Below, piece after piece: positions 2,345 to 53,843 of a stretch of DNA of 64,000 bases. Below the pieces are notes generated by a model. That model did not search any database. It had not been told where the DNA came from and was given only the letters and a program-made list of their open reading frames with translations. Made by a program: the position numbers and the translations under genes. Origin of the DNA: Escherichia phage EcNP1; sequence record NC_054910.1; one strand, written 5' to 3'. Position 1 is the stretch's first letter, and the number at the start of each line of letters is the position of its first letter.

Positions 2345-4400
2345 ACATTTTGAACTTTTTAGACATTCCGTTGATATTAACCAAAGAAGCCAAGATTTGA
2401 GAAACTTCGTTTTCCTCTTCTTTTGATTCTTCTACAAGGAATTGGTTAAATCCAGTCATTGGACGAACTTCACCAGTTTCCATTAGATGGTCGCCATCAT
2501 ATACCGATTCTTCTAATTGTTCAGAAGGAGGAACGATTGTGCCTTCGATTAGATACTTGTTATAAGCAGTTTCTTTCATCATGTACGTACTCACTTTATT
2601 AATCTTCAGCAAAATTCCACGTGGTAAAATAACTTCAGCTTCTGATGGAAATCCTGATAAATGTCCTGGAACGATAACTTTGATTCGCTCAGCTCCTTTA
2701 ATTACCATACCCACGCTAGTTTCAGCATCTTCATTGGCATACGCAGAATGACTACCCATATGCATTAAATCTTCAGCGTCAACAGAACCTTCTCCTTCAC
2801 CAGAAAATACTGCACCGGAATCATCTAGAGCCATATAGTTTTTACCATACTCACCGAAGATATTTGGTTTAAGTGATGTGGATACGAAGTTCTTGAAATA
2901 GAACATTTTATTTTCAATATTATGACGTAAAGTTTTAAAGGTAACTTCTTGGCCACGGTAAAGCGTAGTTCCTGGAGGAAGAACTGATCCTTTGGCAAAA
3001 GCAGAATCCATCGTCTCGATGTGTTTAATAGCTCGTTCCATATATTCTTCACGAGTAGAATCCGGTTTACCTAAAAGGAACGAGTTCATTTCAACATATG
3101 AATCTGCACAATAATCTTCAATTACATCAGACTCAGCCTGAGTTAATCCTTTTGGAGTTACTTCAGTACTTGCATATTCATACGCTTGAGAAGCAGACTC
3201 ATTAATCAATTTATAAACGCCATTCATGACAAATTGAATAATAGCTACCTTTTCATCTGGCGTGGCTTTAGAACCTTTAACTAAATCATTGACGATTTTC
3301 TTAATAACATCAAAGCTATTAGAAATATTAATGTCAGCAAGATCGCTTAAAATTTTATCAGTTTTATAATCAAAAAATTCTTTATTCTTTAAATATTCTT
3401 GAGAACCTTGATATGTTATATCGCTCTGTAATTTAATAGATGGATCACGTAAACGCGCATGGGCCAATGCAATATGATTTCGGAAGCTTTCTAGTTCATA
3501 ATCACTAGATTTAAAACGAGAAGCACTCCTCATACTACCGATAGCTCCTTTGCTGAAGTTTGAACCAACCTGAATAACGCCGGAGTTCATTGGTCCTTCT
3601 GCTTTATATACTGGAACTTTAGATTCAAACTCTTGATATTTCTTAGCAGCGAAGCTATCACCCTGAAGTGAAGCATCGACAGTAGAGTATTGAGCTTGTG
3701 CTGCTAATCGACGACTAATTTTAGTTTTCTGAATAACAGCTTGATCCGTGCGCTTATCATTTTCTAAGGCAATAGAAGCAGCAACAGCAACAGCTTTAGG
3801 AACAGCATTGCCTGTTTTAACATCTACATAAACATCACCAACCTTTGATTCAACCTTTGTGAATAACTCAGTTGAAATAGGAGGTACACCTGGAATGTCT
3901 TCTAAATTGGCATTTTTACGGTAAACCATAATATATGCATACTTTTTATCATAATCCCAGATTTCCTTTAAAAGAACATATCGACCTGCTCCTTTAGTAC
4001 GTACTAAACGGTCGGCAATAACTTGCATTTGACGAGCAGCTCCATTTGTTTTGCTCTTTAGTACGCGGAATAAGCATGCATCAATTTTATACTGTTTCAT
4101 TGTTTGAAGAGCAGTATCAAAAACCGCATTAATGACACCAATTGGATTTCCACCTAAGTTTTTAAGTTTAACTAATGATAGCTTTTCATTGACACCTATC
4201 ATTACGATATGCATCATTTTATCGCCTGGCTTAACGTTTTTATTTGTATCACCGCCAGAGGTGTATGTACAAAATCTAAATCCAGGAAGCACGCTTTCTT
4301 CACCTGCTTGAATAGCAAAAATTTGAGGTATTTTATGCTTCGGGTTTAAGTTAACAACCGGCGCCGAAGCGCCGTCAAATAATTCTGTAATAAGTTCCAT
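2343..4400 (-). CDS. Alt-like mono-ADP-ribosyltransferase, paralog 2
   Basis: 685 aa; N-terminal ~230 aa collinear with the adjacent Alt (MELITELFD...); ART R-S-E motifs LYRGQ / FVSTSL / SEAEVILPRG; shared C-terminal YDGDHLMETGEV; central segment unrelated to paralog 1. Confidence 0.8.
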   Translation of the reverse strand: MELITELFDGASAPVVNLNPKHKIPQIFAIQAGEESVLPGFRFCTYTSGGDTNKNVKPGDKMMHIVMIGVNEKLSLVKLKNLGGNPIGVINAVFDTALQTMKQYKIDACLFRVLKSKTNGAARQMQVIADRLVRTKGAGRYVLLKEIWDYDKKYAYIMVYRKNANLEDIPGVPPISTELFTKVESKVGDVYVDVKTGNAVPKAVAVAASIALENDKRTDQAVIQKTKISRRLAAQAQYSTVDASLQGDSFAAKKYQEFESKVPVYKAEGPMNSGVIQVGSNFSKGAIGSMRSASRFKSSDYELESFRNHIALAHARLRDPSIKLQSDITYQGSQEYLKNKEFFDYKTDKILSDLADINISNSFDVIKKIVNDLVKGSKATPDEKVAIIQFVMNGVYKLINESASQAYEYASTEVTPKGLTQAESDVIEDYCADSYVEMNSFLLGKPDSTREEYMERAIKHIETMDSAFAKGSVLPPGTTLYRGQEVTFKTLRHNIENKMFYFKNFVSTSLKPNIFGEYGKNYMALDDSGAVFSGEGEGSVDAEDLMHMGSHSAYANEDAETSVGMVIKGAERIKVIVPGHLSGFPSEAEVILPRGILLKINKVSTYMMKETAYNKYLIEGTIVPPSEQLEESVYDGDHLMETGEVRPMTGFNQFLVEESKEEENEVSQILASLVNINGMSKKFKM

Positions 4401-4403
4401 GAT

Positions 4404-6500
4404 TTATCCTTGAACGAACTTGTAAGGCATGTTTGTAATATCTATGCAAGACGCAATAATTCCAAGAGATGATTCTACTTTCTGTTTAACGTTTGATGAA
4501 ACAAATGATGCAAAGTCAACTCTGTCTTCTATTTCAATATCACCTGTCATTGCAACTACTTCACCAGTTTCCATTAAATGGTCTCCATCATAAATTACTG
4601 ATTCGGTGAGTTCTTCTGTAGTCATAACTTCAGCTTGAATGAGTTTTGTATTATTAGATGTTGTTCCGTCATTATTAGAAGCATCAGTTATTTTATTAAC
4701 TTTGACCATCAATCCGCGCGGTAGAATAACTTCAGCTTCTGTTGCTATTCCGAGACTTCCTGGATATACAACATTAACTTTATGAGCTCCATCAATTGCC
4801 CATCCTATTTGAACTTTAACGTATTCAGGATTTTCTTTATACGCTCTTATTTCGTTTGGATTAATAGTTATTCCTTCTTCATTTTTATCAACTGTCAATT
4901 CATTACGAGCTTCTGGTTCTAAAAGACCAATACCAGCATGTGTAATTCCAAAACGTCCAAAAATGATAGGAGTTAAAGAAGTAGATACAAAATTTCTGAA
5001 ATAGAACACTTTATTTTTAACTAGTGCTTCGTATATAGGAGCAGTCATACTTTGAGCACGATAAACTGTAATGCCTTCTGGTATACGGTCACCATTTTCA
5101 AAAGCTGAATCTAAGTTATTTATAGCAGATTCAATTTCTTTTTCACTCATTACATCATATCGTTCTGGATTGTAGCGGCCTAAAAGAAGATTATTGATGT
5201 CAGTATATCCTGATCCACAATACTCTCTAATGCCGCGCTTTTGCGATGGAGTATATTTAGAACCATCGCGTGCAATGGTAATATCAATCATTGGACCTGC
5301 ACCAATTCCAGAAAAACTATAAATCATTCGTTTGAGGAATTTAGTTTTTGCTGCGTTCCAGGAATTTTTAGTTATTTCTTCCCAGACTTCATCTGGCTGT
5401 CCTTTACGGGTTTTATTATGTTTATCAAGCCATTTATCTTTGTATTCTTCAAAGAATTTATTAACAGCTGCTGCGTATTTCTCTAAACATTTTATTGAAG
5501 TAGTTGGTTCATTTTTAATCGCATTAAGAATTACATCTTTAATTTTTTCAGAAACTTCATTAACCTCACTTTTTGAAAAGAATTTATAGTCATAGTGAAG
5601 TTCATCTGCAGTTCCTTCAGCAATAATTTTTGCTGCCTTAGTTTTAGAAGCTAATGAATTAATTCCAAGCTTCATTTCTTCTGCTTCTGGAATTAAAGGA
5701 GCAGTAGCAGGTTTATTGAAATTAGCTGCAGTAGATTCATACTTCTGGAATAATTCGCTTTCAAATCTAGAAGATTCTAATGATTGACTTTGCGCAATTG
5801 CTCTACGGGAAATTTTAACTTTAACGATTACAGCTTGGTCAGAGCGTTTATCATTTTCTTGCGCAATAGATGCTGCAATTGCCTCATTTTTAGTTACTTG
5901 AGCACCAGTATCTTTATTGATATAAACATCGCCGACTTTTGATTCAACTTTAGTAAAGAGCTCGGTACTAATTTCCGGAACTCCCGGAATGTCTTCTAGT
6001 GATACATTTTTACGATGTATAAGAATATATGCATACTTTTTATCATAATCCCAGAGTTCCTTAAGAAGGACGTATCTGCCACCTGAACGACTACGGATAA
6101 GTCTATCAGCAATAACTTGAATTTGTCGAGCTTGACCAGCAGTTTTAGACTTAAGAATACGGAGCATACAGGCATCAATTTTATACTGACGCATCGTCTG
6201 CATTGCAACAGTAAAAACTGAATTGATATAATTAATTGGGCTTGGACCGAGACCTTTTAATTTAGCAATTGAACCTTTAGCAGTTAATGTAAAAGGAACA
6301 ATATGCATCATTTTATCGCCCATTTTTAAATCGCGATTAGTATCACCTCCAGATGTATAGGTACATAAACGAAAGCCTGGTTGTTCAATTGCGTCATCGA
6401 CATGAACTGAAAAAATTTGCGGTATTTTCTTCTTTGGATTTAAGTTTGTAATCGGAAGAGTAGTATCTTCGTCAAATAATTCTGTAATGAGTTCCATCAT
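4404..6500 (-). CDS. alt: Alt ADP-ribosyltransferase (head-packaged, injected)
   Basis: 698 aa (T4 Alt 682 aa); ART motifs VYRAQ / FVSTSL / TEAEVILPRG; position between gene 54 and gene 30 as in T4. Confidence 0.85.
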   Translation of the reverse strand: MMELITELFDEDTTLPITNLNPKKKIPQIFSVHVDDAIEQPGFRLCTYTSGGDTNRDLKMGDKMMHIVPFTLTAKGSIAKLKGLGPSPINYINSVFTVAMQTMRQYKIDACMLRILKSKTAGQARQIQVIADRLIRSRSGGRYVLLKELWDYDKKYAYILIHRKNVSLEDIPGVPEISTELFTKVESKVGDVYINKDTGAQVTKNEAIAASIAQENDKRSDQAVIVKVKISRRAIAQSQSLESSRFESELFQKYESTAANFNKPATAPLIPEAEEMKLGINSLASKTKAAKIIAEGTADELHYDYKFFSKSEVNEVSEKIKDVILNAIKNEPTTSIKCLEKYAAAVNKFFEEYKDKWLDKHNKTRKGQPDEVWEEITKNSWNAAKTKFLKRMIYSFSGIGAGPMIDITIARDGSKYTPSQKRGIREYCGSGYTDINNLLLGRYNPERYDVMSEKEIESAINNLDSAFENGDRIPEGITVYRAQSMTAPIYEALVKNKVFYFRNFVSTSLTPIIFGRFGITHAGIGLLEPEARNELTVDKNEEGITINPNEIRAYKENPEYVKVQIGWAIDGAHKVNVVYPGSLGIATEAEVILPRGLMVKVNKITDASNNDGTTSNNTKLIQAEVMTTEELTESVIYDGDHLMETGEVVAMTGDIEIEDRVDFASFVSSNVKQKVESSLGIIASCIDITNMPYKFVQG

Positions 6501-16607: not shown

Positions 16608-16834
16608 TTATTTTTCTCAACCAATGATTGAATATAATCATGCAGGTCTTTAGATGCTTTACCCCACTTATTTTGATATTCATTTTTAAGATTAGCCCGA
16701 GATTGAGCTAATAAAACGTCATTAGTTGGAGGTAAAGATTCTAATCGTTGAATCTGACGTCCATAAATCATTGCAGCCATCTCAGATTCATAAATCAATC
16801 CTTTGAGATGTTCAAATTGATGCCATGAAATCAT
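16604..16834 (-). CDS. hypothetical protein (76 aa)
   Basis: Track ORF. Confidence 0.5.
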
Positions 16835-17130
16835 TTACATTTATCCTCTTTTAGCTCTTGACGATAATAACATATCATAGTTTTTTGGTCATGTACATAT
16901 CGTTTTACATCATTAAGCCAAATACGAAATTCCTGGGAATCTTCAAATGGCATACCGACCCAAGCTTTACCATCAATAACTTTAACTTGCCAAGATAGTT
17001 TAGCTTCATCGTATGACTTTATTTGCACAGGCCAATTAGGATGAACTGTTTCTTTCTTTACTTCTAGAGGCTTTGTCGAACAACCAACTAGAAGACCAAT
17101 AGATAATATTACTGCTGATAGTTTAATCAT
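16831..17130 (-). CDS. o-spanin (outer-membrane lipoprotein, pseT.2-like)
   Basis: 99 aa; signal peptide with lipobox LLVGC; directly downstream of, and overlapping, an i-spanin-like ORF. Confidence 0.65.
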   Translation of the reverse strand: MIKLSAVILSIGLLVGCSTKPLEVKKETVHPNWPVQIKSYDEAKLSWQVKVIDGKAWVGMPFEDSQEFRIWLNDVKRYVHDQKTMICYYRQELKEDKCK

Positions 17131-17480
17131 TTAGAAAGGTCCTGGATGTCTTCTGCGAACTTGTTGAAGGAGTTGTTGATTTGTTTTTCAACCAATCCTG
17201 GCTTATGAGCCACCACATCCGCCTTCTTTGCATCTTTGCGCAGTTTTTCATTTTCACGCTCAATAGCAGCAATTGCCTCACGATTTTTATTATTCATCGC
17301 ATCAATATAATTATACTGAATTCGCAAATTATCTAATGCTAAAGCGTTTTCATTGGCCGTTTTTGTAATTTCTACAACAGACGTTTCTAATCTTTCAATT
17401 TTACTTTTTAAAATTAAAGAAGTTCCGCCCAATGCAATTACAATTAATAACAAGCCTGCTGTCGTATTACTTAATTGCAT
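17127..17480 (-). CDS. i-spanin (inner-membrane anchored, pseT.3-like)
   Basis: 117 aa; N-terminal TM helix AGLLLIVIALGGTSLIL then coiled-coil-like periplasmic region. Confidence 0.65.
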   Translation of the reverse strand: MQLSNTTAGLLLIVIALGGTSLILKSKIERLETSVVEITKTANENALALDNLRIQYNYIDAMNNKNREAIAAIERENEKLRKDAKKADVVAHKPGLVEKQINNSFNKFAEDIQDLSK

Positions 17481-44873: not shown

Positions 44874-45014
44874 TTACCATACTAGTGAATGTAGTGCCAT
44901 AATAACATCAGAAATGAAAAGCACGACTTGAATTAATCCGAACATTACTCCATAATATAGCGCTACCAATAAAGTAGCAAGGGCTAATGAATAGCCCAAG
45001 ATTTTCTTAATCAT
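44874..45014 (-). CDS. small membrane peptide (46 aa, 52.1-like)
   Basis: Not in track; hydrophobic MIKKILGYSLALATLLVALYYGVMFGLIQVVLFISDVIMALHSLVW. Confidence 0.4.
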   Translation of the reverse strand: MIKKILGYSLALATLLVALYYGVMFGLIQVVLFISDVIMALHSLVW

Positions 45015-45165
45015 TGGTAGATAACAACACAAATGTTAAATATGCACACATACCCTGGGCTAAAGCTTGTGAAAACACACTGCTAGCATCGATACAGATA
45101 GTTAAAACACATGCTACTATCCAACAAATAAATGAAATAACTCCTAATAATTTTGCGATATTCAT
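45007..45165 (-). CDS. ac: small membrane peptide (52 aa), candidate Ac (acridine sensitivity)
   Basis: Not in track; hydrophobic; position between 52 and stp as in T4 (Ac 51 aa). Confidence 0.4.
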   Translation of the reverse strand: MNIAKLLGVISFICWIVACVLTICIDASSVFSQALAQGMCAYLTFVLLSTND

Positions 45166-51428: not shown

Positions 51429-51632
51429 TTAATTCATATTGCGTTTAATAACTTCAGCAACTTCTAGTAGTTCATCTTTAGTTGCGGTGTCGGATTGAAT
51501 TTTATCTCTAATATCCTTAAAGCGGTTTTTAAACTCTTCGGCTTCTCCCATATCGAAAAAGCGTTGAATGATTCTATATTCTCGATGAACTGCTTTATCA
51601 AAAAGTTCTAAATTTACTCTATATGATTTCAT
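51429..51632 (-). CDS. hypothetical protein (67 aa, rIIA.1-like)
   Basis: Track ORF between promoter and rIIA. Confidence 0.55.
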
Positions 51633-51657: not shown

Positions 51658-51687
51658 ATTATACCACATCCTTGTGGTAAAGTAAAC
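51658..51687 (-). promoter_or_regulatory. T4-type early promoter for the rIIA operon
   Basis: Minus strand GTTTAC (overlapping gene 39 stop) + 18 nt + TATAAT with TGG extended -10; CCACA/TGTGG inverted repeat in spacer. Confidence 0.6.
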
Positions 51688-53507
51688 TATTGGCTCATCC
51701 ATTCTTTACGAAGGTCAGCATTATCTCCCATGAGCATTTCAAAAAGCTCTTTCCAGTTCTCAGGAAGTTTAACAACATCATATACTGGGTTTTGAATCAT
51801 CTCACGATATTCAGATTTTTCCAAAGAGCCAAGTCCCTTAATATAACGGATGCTATGTTTAGGTAGAGCATCTTTAGCACTCTCATATTCAGCGACTGTA
51901 TAAAACCATTCTTGTTTTTTACCGACCTGAGCGATGATTACAGGAGTTTTGACAAAGCGAATTCTTCCTTGTTCAAACAGTTCTGGCCAATTACTAAAAA
52001 ATCCGAGCAGAGAAGGATAAATGCTTCCTAGACCATCATGGTCAGCATCAGTCATAATAGCAATATTATGATAATTCAAGTTTTCGGCTTTTTCACCAAG
52101 AACTAATCCAGTGATTGCGCAAATATCAAACAGCTCTTTGTTTTTAAGCATATCAGCATATGACATACCCCAGCTGTTAAGAACTTTACCACGCAATGGA
52201 TAACCGCCATGAAGTTCTTTATCACGAACATCAATAAGATATCCGATAGCAGAATCACCCTCAGTCAAGAAAAGAGTAGTGTCAGCATCTTTACCACAAA
52301 GATTCGCTTTAATATGTTTATGAACCTTAGCTTTAGAGGCCTTTTTAGCTGCTTTAGTTTCTGCTGCTTTTTCTGCCGCCAATTTACGAGCCAAGGCAGC
52401 TTCAATGATTGGCATTAAAATTGCTTCATTATTTAAAATAGCACGTGAAATCTTTTTAGCATCAAGCTGAATATGACTACGAATTTCACCAAATGGAGAA
52501 GTCAAACGCTCTTTAGTTTGAGAATCAAATCGCATGTTTTTCATATCACGAACAAACATAACGATAGTCAAACATTCTTTAACACGTGCTTTAGTTACAT
52601 CAATTTTGAATTTACGTTTGATTTGTGGAATAAGGTCTTCACAAATATCATCCATAACACAATCAATATGATGGCCACCATTCTTGGTATGAATGTTATT
52701 GACGTATGTTAATTGACGAAAACCATCCGGTGAACGACCGACCGCAATAGAACAATTTTCTTGTTCTTGAACGATAGCATGTTCATCATATTGGCGTGCA
52801 TATTTCTTAAAATTACCCTGAACCTTTTTACCATTAAAGGTAAATTGAATATCAGGATAAACTACTGCAAGTGTCTGGAGACGATCCAGTGTAATGTCAA
52901 GATAAACTTGAGATAGCTCATTAGTTTCAAATGACATAAAATCAGGAATAAAAGTAACGCGAGTTCCTTTCCATTTTCCAGGAATATCTTCCCATGATTT
53001 ATTTTCCATGCCATTCGAGCAGCGAACTACAATATTATTTTGACCGTCGCCAGTTTCACCGACAAACATCACAGAAAAAATGTTAGTTAAACTAGAACCA
53101 ACACCGTTCATACCGCCAGTGACGCGTTCTTTATCATCACCAAAGTTACCACCTGCTTTTGGAATAGTCCATGCAGCAACAGGACCAGGAATTTCTTCAC
53201 CGGTAGGTGTTTTAACCATCGCCTGTGGAATACCACGACCGTTATCTTCAACTGTTACTTGATTGTTTTTGATAGTAACATTAATTTTATTTGCGAATTT
53301 AAACTTAGTACGAATACCTTCATCTACTGAGTTATCAATAATTTCATCAATAAGCTTAACAAGACCAGGTACATACTGAACACTTTCCCATTTACCAAAC
53401 AGAAAGCGCTCATGCATTTCATTAGCAGAAGAGCCAATATACATGCCGCTACGCTTTTTGATATGTTCAATATCGCTCAGAATTTTAATTTCATTCTTAA
53501 TCATCAC
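51687..53507 (-). CDS. 39: DNA topoisomerase II large subunit, unsplit (T4 gp39 + gp60 equivalent)
   Basis: 606 aa single ORF; GyrB-type ATPase motif VEDNGRGIP; no internal stop, bypass gap or inserted gene. Confidence 0.92.
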   Translation of the reverse strand: MMIKNEIKILSDIEHIKKRSGMYIGSSANEMHERFLFGKWESVQYVPGLVKLIDEIIDNSVDEGIRTKFKFANKINVTIKNNQVTVEDNGRGIPQAMVKTPTGEEIPGPVAAWTIPKAGGNFGDDKERVTGGMNGVGSSLTNIFSVMFVGETGDGQNNIVVRCSNGMENKSWEDIPGKWKGTRVTFIPDFMSFETNELSQVYLDITLDRLQTLAVVYPDIQFTFNGKKVQGNFKKYARQYDEHAIVQEQENCSIAVGRSPDGFRQLTYVNNIHTKNGGHHIDCVMDDICEDLIPQIKRKFKIDVTKARVKECLTIVMFVRDMKNMRFDSQTKERLTSPFGEIRSHIQLDAKKISRAILNNEAILMPIIEAALARKLAAEKAAETKAAKKASKAKVHKHIKANLCGKDADTTLFLTEGDSAIGYLIDVRDKELHGGYPLRGKVLNSWGMSYADMLKNKELFDICAITGLVLGEKAENLNYHNIAIMTDADHDGLGSIYPSLLGFFSNWPELFEQGRIRFVKTPVIIAQVGKKQEWFYTVAEYESAKDALPKHSIRYIKGLGSLEKSEYREMIQNPVYDVVKLPENWKELFEMLMGDNADLRKEWMSQ

Positions 53508-53573
53508 TTATCCTCGTTTGGTTTCGGGAATATTATACTCCAGTAATCATAAAGCTAAAGGCCCGAAGGCCTT

Positions 53574-53843
53574 TTATTTAAAACGGATAGTCGAATCCTT
53601 GAAGAATAGACCAGAACATACTGTTCCTTCTACTTTCTGCCCGGTAGGTCCAATAGCACGAAATCCAGTGTGTTGGAAATCATTTTCAGAGCAACCGAAC
53701 CAATTATATCCAGTGATTTCAATATTAGTAAAACCACTTGAAGACAAAACTTTGGTTGCATTATCGGCATCAGTACATCCTACTAAAGATACTGCTAATA
53801 CTAATGCCGCGATAGAACGATTAACATATTTCATAATTTTCAC
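53574..53843 (-). CDS. predicted lipoprotein (89 aa)
   Basis: Signal peptide with lipobox AVSLVGC; Cys-containing mature region. Confidence 0.6.
   Translation of the reverse strand: MKIMKYVNRSIAALVLAVSLVGCTDADNATKVLSSSGFTNIEITGYNWFGCSENDFQHTGFRAIGPTGQKVEGTVCSGLFFKDSTIRFK

Follow-up and report, generated by a model that had tools for sequence, protein, structure and literature searches.

Escherichia phage EcNP1 carries a small open reading frame on the minus strand between a goF-like gene and gene 39, and the question raised by this locus is what the product is and what it does in the infected cell. The window is the whole stretch of DNA that was analyzed, 64,000 nucleotides of record NC_054910.1. 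A sequence-only reading of this window described the product as a small phage lipoprotein and suggested superinfection exclusion or receptor masking as its role.

The ORF is intact at 53574..53843 on the minus strand and encodes 89 aa when read from a GTG (MKIMKYVNRSIAALVLAVSLVGC followed by TDADN...). This GTG, at 53843, shares sequence with the TGA stop of its upstream neighbor, a 125-aa goF-like ORF, and the overlap suggests that the two genes are probably translationally coupled. An in-frame ATG at 53834 yields an 86-aa product, MKYVNRSIAALVLAVSLVGC-TDADNATKVLSSSGFTNIEITGYNWFGCSENDFQHTGFRAIGPTGQKVEGTVCSGLFFKDSTIRFK. In the alignment, most homologs begin with MKY or MKK at the position of this ATG, and the in-frame T4 codons directly 5' of the matching ATG contain no alternative start codon. 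For these two reasons, ATG 53834 is the likely start, favored over GTG 53843, and residues are numbered here on the 86-aa product. The gene, known as 39.1, and its surroundings are as follows.

54812-54393, minus strand: goF
54390-54214, minus strand: 39.2, a zinc-ribbon protein
54217-53840, minus strand: goF-like paralog, 125 aa, which hits PHROG 622 (E=1e-28) and, more weakly, goF families
53574..53834, minus strand: gene 39.1 coding sequence, 86 aa plus stop, matching PHROG 902 at E=3e-37 and annotated as 39.1 in T2 and AR1
53557..53574, minus strand: RNA hairpin AAAGGCC-UUCG-GGCCUUU with a UUCG tetraloop, sharing its first base with the end of the UAA stop, from RNA folding
53532..53559, minus strand: middle-promoter-like element for gene 39, TTTAGCTTTA, a 12 nt spacer and TATAAT, read from the sequence
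51687..53507, minus strand: gene 39, topoisomerase II large subunit, a single 606-aa ORF
51429-51632, minus strand: rIIA.1, directly after gene 39

The minus-strand order is thus goF, 39.2, the goF-like gene, 39.1, the UUCG hairpin, the middle-promoter-like element, gene 39, and rIIA.1. It follows that, read along the transcript, 39.1 comes before gene 39, on its 5' (upstream) side; its earlier placement "downstream of gene 39" is correct in plus-strand coordinates only. The arrangement is that of the T-even phages, in which 39.1 directly precedes gene 39 and follows 39.2/goF. The goF-like 125-aa gene is absent from T4 and is present in many Tequatrovirus genomes. Gene 39 of EcNP1 is one unbroken ORF followed by rIIA.1, and therefore the phage has neither the T4-type gene 39/60 split nor the mobA insertion, nor the translational-bypass region of gene 60.

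The hairpin sequence is identical in T4, and a 'terminator' is annotated at this position in vB_EcoM_G50 and fPS-2. A consensus terminator scan made no call at 53557..53574 because no T-run follows the stem. The UUCG hairpin either closes the 39.1 transcription unit or stabilizes the mRNA. On the far side of it, TTTAGCTTTA/TATAAT is a putative MotA-dependent promoter, assigned from the known consensus. In this arrangement, 39.1 would be the last cistron of an early unit composed of goF, 39.2, the goF-like gene, and 39.1, and the unit would end at the hairpin, just before the gene 39 promoter.

The N-terminus of gp39.1 has the features expected of a bacterial-type lipoprotein precursor.

53778..53834, minus strand: signal peptide, residues 1-19 (MKYVNRSIAALVLAVSLVG), with K2 and R6 in the n-region and an h-region from I8 to V18, by the rule check
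53775..53786, minus strand: lipobox L17-V18-G19-C20, with C20 as the predicted lipidated first mature residue

The rule applied is of the PROSITE PS51257 type and calls for K or R within the first 7 residues, an uncharged hydrophobic h-region, the motif [LIVMFWSTAG]2-[LIVMFYSTAGCQ]-[AGS]-C, and the Cys at position 15-35. For the membership test, the lipobox takes the form [LVI][ASTVI][GAS]C, again with the Cys at position 15-35. The protein conforms to the rule from both starts, which place the Cys at 20 or 23. Such matches are rare: the whole window, in six frames, offers 945 start/ORF combinations of 50 aa or longer, and 6 of them pass, two being the 39.1 ORF itself and one the Rz1 o-spanin. 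A 52-aa hydrophobic ORF (MNIAKLLGVISFICWIVAC...) at 45007-45165 on the minus strand also passes, with its Cys at 19. AF2 predicts a helix at residues 4-16, within the signal peptide.

Conservation among homologs points the same way. The C20 column holds Cys in 254 of the 275 family members and is invariant in the 21 T4-like sequences. The +2 residue is Thr in 235 of 275 members, and +3 is Asp or Asn in most. The signal peptide and LVGC lipobox first described for the 89-aa ORF are thus borne out by the rule check and by the conservation of the cysteine, and gp39.1 is well supported as a predicted small phage lipoprotein. By the same sequence rules, Sec would export the precursor, and Lgt, LspA, and Lnt would lipidate it at Cys20. 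The Thr at +2 would then sort it to the outer membrane, under a rule that is established for enterobacteria only.

Another lipoprotein in the window is the o-spanin Rz1, a 99-aa LVGC lipoprotein encoded at 16831..17130 on the minus strand. Its start overlaps the end of an i-spanin-like Rz ORF (17127..17480, 117 aa). Location of this Rz/Rz1 pair at 16831-17480 confirms the earlier statement that gp39.1 is separate from the o-spanin and lies outside the lysis cassette. Gene 39.1 is flanked by the goF-like gene and gene 39, and its mature region contains 1 Pro in 67 residues with a predicted alpha/beta fold. Spanin identity was rejected: the protein has a folded domain and no i-spanin partner, and the phage has its own Rz/Rz1 elsewhere. 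A looser connection to lysis, in which gp39.1 would be a second spanin-like component or a regulator of holin, antiholin, or spanin, draws on its likeness to Rz1 as an outer-membrane-type lipoprotein and on an endolysin gene found as one of 107 neighbors in other phages. This idea is scarcely credible, since an Rz/Rz1 pair is already in place, mature gp39.1 has a folded alpha/beta domain where an o-spanin would be extended and proline-rich, no i-spanin gene is adjacent to or embeds 39.1, and the gene is early rather than late with no conserved lysis neighbors.

Several observations show that 39.1 is a real and expressed gene. A tblastn search matched the gp39.1 protein in 1069 phage records. 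Compared with both close and distant T-even alleles, dN/dS is 0-0.14; one T-even allele (locus L007) has 17% synonymous differences and zero non-synonymous ones. By these comparisons, gene 39.1 is under strong purifying selection. T4 39.1 is classed as 'early-RNA_late-Protein' in a time course of T4-infected cells (PMC9697503 supplement), and its listing in that class means that the T4 protein was detected. An antisense or chance ORF was considered and is ruled out by the dN/dS values and the rarity of lipoprotein-rule matches. Taken jointly, the identity of the gene, its coding status, and its predicted lipoprotein nature are close to certain. Gene 39.1 is a known, annotated T-even gene, and its detection here is a re-discovery, not a new gene. 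Some phage records already label gp39.1 orthologs 'lipoprotein' or 'putative lipoprotein'.

The T4 reference gives a different picture. In NC_000866/AF158101, 39.1 is 65 aa without a signal peptide or lipobox, and 39.2 is cut to 45 aa. Comparison of NC_000866 (~5590-5760) with MT984581 (1688-2127) reveals clustered substitutions and two 1-nt insertions within ~170 nt of the reference. Nine T4 records (HM137666, KJ477684-6, MT984581, OL964735, OZ035787, and OZ209023/57) share one version, which is two bases shorter than the reference and 96.5% identical to it. Only M89919 and X06220, entries of the 1980s-90s, agree with the reference. Because nine records agree on the other version and only old entries match the reference, we conclude that the T4 reference is wrong at 39.1/39.2, most likely owing to legacy sequencing errors. 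The 65-aa T4 protein and the 86-aa EcNP1 protein thus differ through a record error, not through biology.

This error has consequences for work based on T4. In the annotation tables of a CRISPRi-ART study of T4, 39.1 (T4p007) is listed as function unknown and as a PHROG 'singleton', and in the screen itself it was scored 'Not Fit'. The guides were built on the erroneous reference start and carry one extra base relative to re-sequenced T4, and for this reason the 'Not Fit' score is weak evidence of dispensability. T4-based functional genomics has thus treated 39.1 as a 65-aa cytoplasmic singleton, with reagents designed on the wrong sequence. The demonstration that the T4 reference conceals a lipoprotein is the most useful by-product of this analysis.

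Following the lipidated cysteine is a compact domain, for which the following features were assigned.

53577..53777, minus strand: mature domain C20-K86, 67 residues, from the AF2 model and column conservation
53691..53693, minus strand: C48 codon, predicted disulfide partner of C73
53616..53618, minus strand: C73 codon, predicted disulfide partner of C48

The mature domain had been described as Cys-containing, and it indeed has two cysteines, C48 and C73 (86-aa numbering). Among 275 members, both are present in 266, neither in 4, and a single one in 5. A second pair, C74/C81, is optional; both positions are Cys in 28 members (~10%), and never just one. Cysteines that come and go in pairs speak for one obligatory and one optional disulfide, hence for folding in the periplasm. 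The 67-residue mature domain of gp39.1 would accordingly be oxidized in a DsbA-dependent manner to form one disulfide, C48-C73.

In 186 of 203 members, a TGF motif lies exactly 36 residues from the lipobox Cys, and the T-D pair that follows the Cys is kept even in members without a lipobox Cys. Since it is retained without the Cys, the T-D pair seems to cap the first helix at its N-terminus, leaving no flexible tether. With the helix N-cap T21-D22 directly after the acylated Cys, the domain would sit flush on the membrane and not span the periplasm. A periplasmic, disulfide-bonded domain held at the membrane surface is probable.

The AF2 model (mc35b501ef09d, built with 150 sequences) has a mean pLDDT of 80.7. 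It consists of the signal helix, the T21-D22 cap, a helix at 23-32, and strands at 36-43, 54-61, 67-74, and 81-85. The predicted fold is a generic, cystatin/PepSY-like one, in which one helix would pack on a four-stranded antiparallel sheet; homology is not implied. Foldseek found no match to the model in the PDB, and a search of PDB sequences with the family sequence profile found nothing. This helix-plus-sheet module is common and often binds or inhibits proteins, and the fold matches listed are mostly protein-binding modules. Nearly invariant columns of the family are D52, T56, F58, A60, G70, V72, K79, T82, and R84, of which D52, T56, K79, T82, and R84 are the conserved polar residues of the mature domain.

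The family to which gp39.1 belongs is large. The protein matches PHROG 902 over residues 3-89 of the 89-aa reading at E=3.2e-37; this PHROG is labelled function unknown and is the sole PHROG match at E<=0.01. Pfam, NCBIfam, and PADLOC scans of gp39.1 return no family. Across 150 family members, Pfam and NCBIfam match signal-peptide, lipobox, and pilin-leader motifs only and leave the mature domain unmatched. An exhaustive profile search collected 2039 clusters at 50% identity (E<=0.001), 866 of them at E<=1e-10, and nearly all are 80-110 aa long. This is, then, a very large phage family with no Pfam or NCBIfam model. The literature search on gp39.1, part of which was dominated by clinical lipoprotein papers, returned no functional study and no experiment on any family member.

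All named members are phage-borne, and their hosts are Gram-negative throughout. Hosts include Escherichia, Klebsiella, Serratia, Aeromonas, Stenotrophomonas, Pseudomonas, Rhodobacter, Synechococcus, Agrobacterium, and Edwardsiella, with 40-50% identity in phages of Rhodobacter, Synechococcus, Stenotrophomonas, and Agrobacterium. No contig represented in the best 120 of the 2039 clusters is longer than 236 kb, the length of the largest. A scan of bacterial genomes, whose patterns are biased to the T4-like subfamily so that chromosomal absence is not implied, returned 4 metagenome-assembled contigs only, and one of these resembles phage DNA, with genes for a DNA polymerase and a primase-helicase of phage type. 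The family is apparently confined to phages. A member is found at 3200-3448 of an 8.7-kb contig of small same-strand ORFs (L004), in a metagenome-assembled genome labelled 'Bacilli bacterium' and thus assigned to a Gram-positive lineage. This contig looks like phage DNA, and its assignment is probably a binning artefact; if genuine, it would be the sole sign of a host outside the Gram-negative bacteria.

The anchor of the domain varies. About 7% of relatives have a transmembrane or plain signal anchor instead of a lipobox, and so outer-membrane anchoring is not essential to function. In a subgroup of ~120 aa (P0061/P0113/P0159), a long cytoplasmic N-terminus precedes a transmembrane anchor, with no lipobox. 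In P0121 the domain is fused to a prepilin-type N-methylation leader, and P0063 (142 aa) has two tandem copies of the domain.

Gene neighbors do not recur. At 27 diverse viral loci with 107 neighbor ORFs, no PHROG family is common to more than 2. Neighbors encode DNA polymerase, primase-helicase, ribonucleotide reductase, Erf, RusA, and integrases, with an endolysin and a tail fibre as single cases. In Rhodobacter phage RcSimone-Hastad, the family gene stands at the end of a gene block encoding ribonucleotide reductase, dihydrofolate reductase, and dCMP deaminase. The non-recurrent neighbors therefore mark 39.1 as a mobile, stand-alone accessory gene, usually found in early/DNA-metabolism regions.

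What remains is the role of the protein. The best explanation as a whole, to which we assign a probability of roughly 0.4, is that gp39.1 is an early exported lipoprotein whose domain lies flush on the membrane and acts on a conserved envelope target. The notion of a conserved target comes from the 40-50% identity retained across phyla together with the near-invariant D52, T56, K79, T82, and R84. Such a pattern points to an invariant envelope target and not to a rapid contest with the host, which would be unusual for a phage lipoprotein. Tentatively, gp39.1 may be a binder or inhibitor of a conserved envelope component: alone, it would act stoichiometrically on an invariant, membrane-proximal component of the Gram-negative envelope. 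In doing so, it would condition or protect the envelope of the infected cell during the latent period, leaving the phage's own receptor unmasked.

A bolder form of the conserved-target explanation is that the family consists of phage effectors that, from the periplasmic leaflet, hit a universal outer-membrane machine or enzyme, e.g., BamA, LptDE, or the phospholipase OMPLA. We regard this form as improbable. If true, it would describe an envelope step of host takeover common to myo-, sipho-, podo-, and jumbo phages, and one overlooked because the T4 reference hides the signal peptide.

The same conserved residues also suit a target that is not a protein. Here, an invariant ligand at the membrane surface would dock on the D52/T56/K79/T82/R84 patch; it might be a phospholipid head group, a lipid A or lipid II intermediate, or a muropeptide, and its binding would alter envelope stability or signalling. 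Three observations are consistent with a ligand of this kind: charged and polar residues of the 67-residue domain stay nearly invariant from phylum to phylum, the domain would sit flush on the phospholipid leaflet, and function apparently persists after a switch between lipid and transmembrane anchors, which fits a target present on both periplasm-facing leaflets. The fold matches, however, are mostly protein-binding modules, and the gp39.1 family offers no precedent for lipid binding, so we consider a small-ligand or lipid binder unlikely.

Exclusion, the role first suggested for the protein, can take two forms. In the general, receptor-independent form, gp39.1 would block a common envelope step of incoming phages, e.g., the tail-tip peptidoglycan hydrolase or the DNA conduit, much like T4 Sp or Imm but lipid-anchored. 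In T4, superinfection immunity is attributed to imm and sp by classical genetics, and gp39.1 has no sequence relation to Sp/Imm, its sole PHROG match being 902. Exclusion factors also usually diversify fast and have a narrow range, whereas gp39.1 is under purifying selection and spans several phyla. On the other side, the protein is early, periplasmic, and stand-alone, and its fold class is rich in protein inhibitors. Some carriers are temperate, as judged by integrases among the neighbors, and temperate phages are the usual setting of exclusion 'moron' genes. Moreover, lipoproteins with very short tethers exclude in T5 and Rtp (PMC9586334; PMC12685063). A receptor-independent exclusion role of this kind is possible, though not likely, for gp39.1. 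In the literature searched, no exclusion or adsorption phenotype is reported for the gp39.1 family.

The second form is masking of the Llp/Cor/Rtp45 type, in which the lipoprotein would bind the periplasmic face of the phage's own receptor, alter its surface loops allosterically, and block adsorption. Size, lipid anchor, short tether, and early expression of gp39.1 all resemble Llp and Rtp45. T2, T4, and T6 differ in their receptors. Their gp39.1 proteins are nevertheless ~97-98% identical, and it is this near-identity despite different receptors that makes masking unlikely. The protein is also present in phages of cyanobacteria, alphaproteobacteria, and Stenotrophomonas. Its gene does not track the receptor and is not linked to receptor-binding or tail-fibre genes, lying instead in early/DNA-metabolism regions. 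With PHROG 902 as the sole PHROG match and none in Pfam or PADLOC, gp39.1 has no similarity to known exclusion lipoproteins, and the structures of Llp and Rtp45 are absent among the fold matches listed. Given this near-identity, host spread, purifying selection, and lack of similarity to Llp/Cor/Rtp45, the receptor masking proposed from the sequence is a poor fit and very improbable.

The early, membrane-flush lipoprotein with a conserved envelope target can be set beside several known systems. The closest are its own orthologs in T2, T4, T6, JS98, and relatives, which share the site 5' of gene 39 and the UUCG hairpin, with ~97-99% identity to T2, T6, and re-sequenced T4. EcNP1 gp39.1 is 97.8% identical to its T2 and 96.6% identical to its T6 counterpart and has few differences from re-sequenced T4. 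In predicted fold, it is likened to cystatin/PepSY/VirB8-like (half NTF2) small domains, including the colicin M immunity protein Cmi. T4 Rz1 (PseT.2), the o-spanin, is likewise an outer-membrane-type lipoprotein with the same LVGC lipobox; its gene overlaps Rz and its product works with Rz, whereas gp39.1 has no partner, a compact folded domain, and early expression.

Llp (T5), Rtp45 (Rtp), and Cor (T1, phi80, N15) are ~6-7 kDa phage-made lipoproteins anchored, by hardly any tether, in the outer membrane's inner leaflet; each is a stand-alone binder (PMC9586334; PMC12685063). Llp acts on FhuA and Rtp45 on LptDE, in each case the phage's own receptor (PMC9586334; PMC12685063). Like them, gp39.1 is a small, predicted lipoprotein with a short tether that stands alone. 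Unlike them, it is unlinked to a receptor-binding gene, conserved across receptors and hosts, and under purifying, not diversifying, selection.
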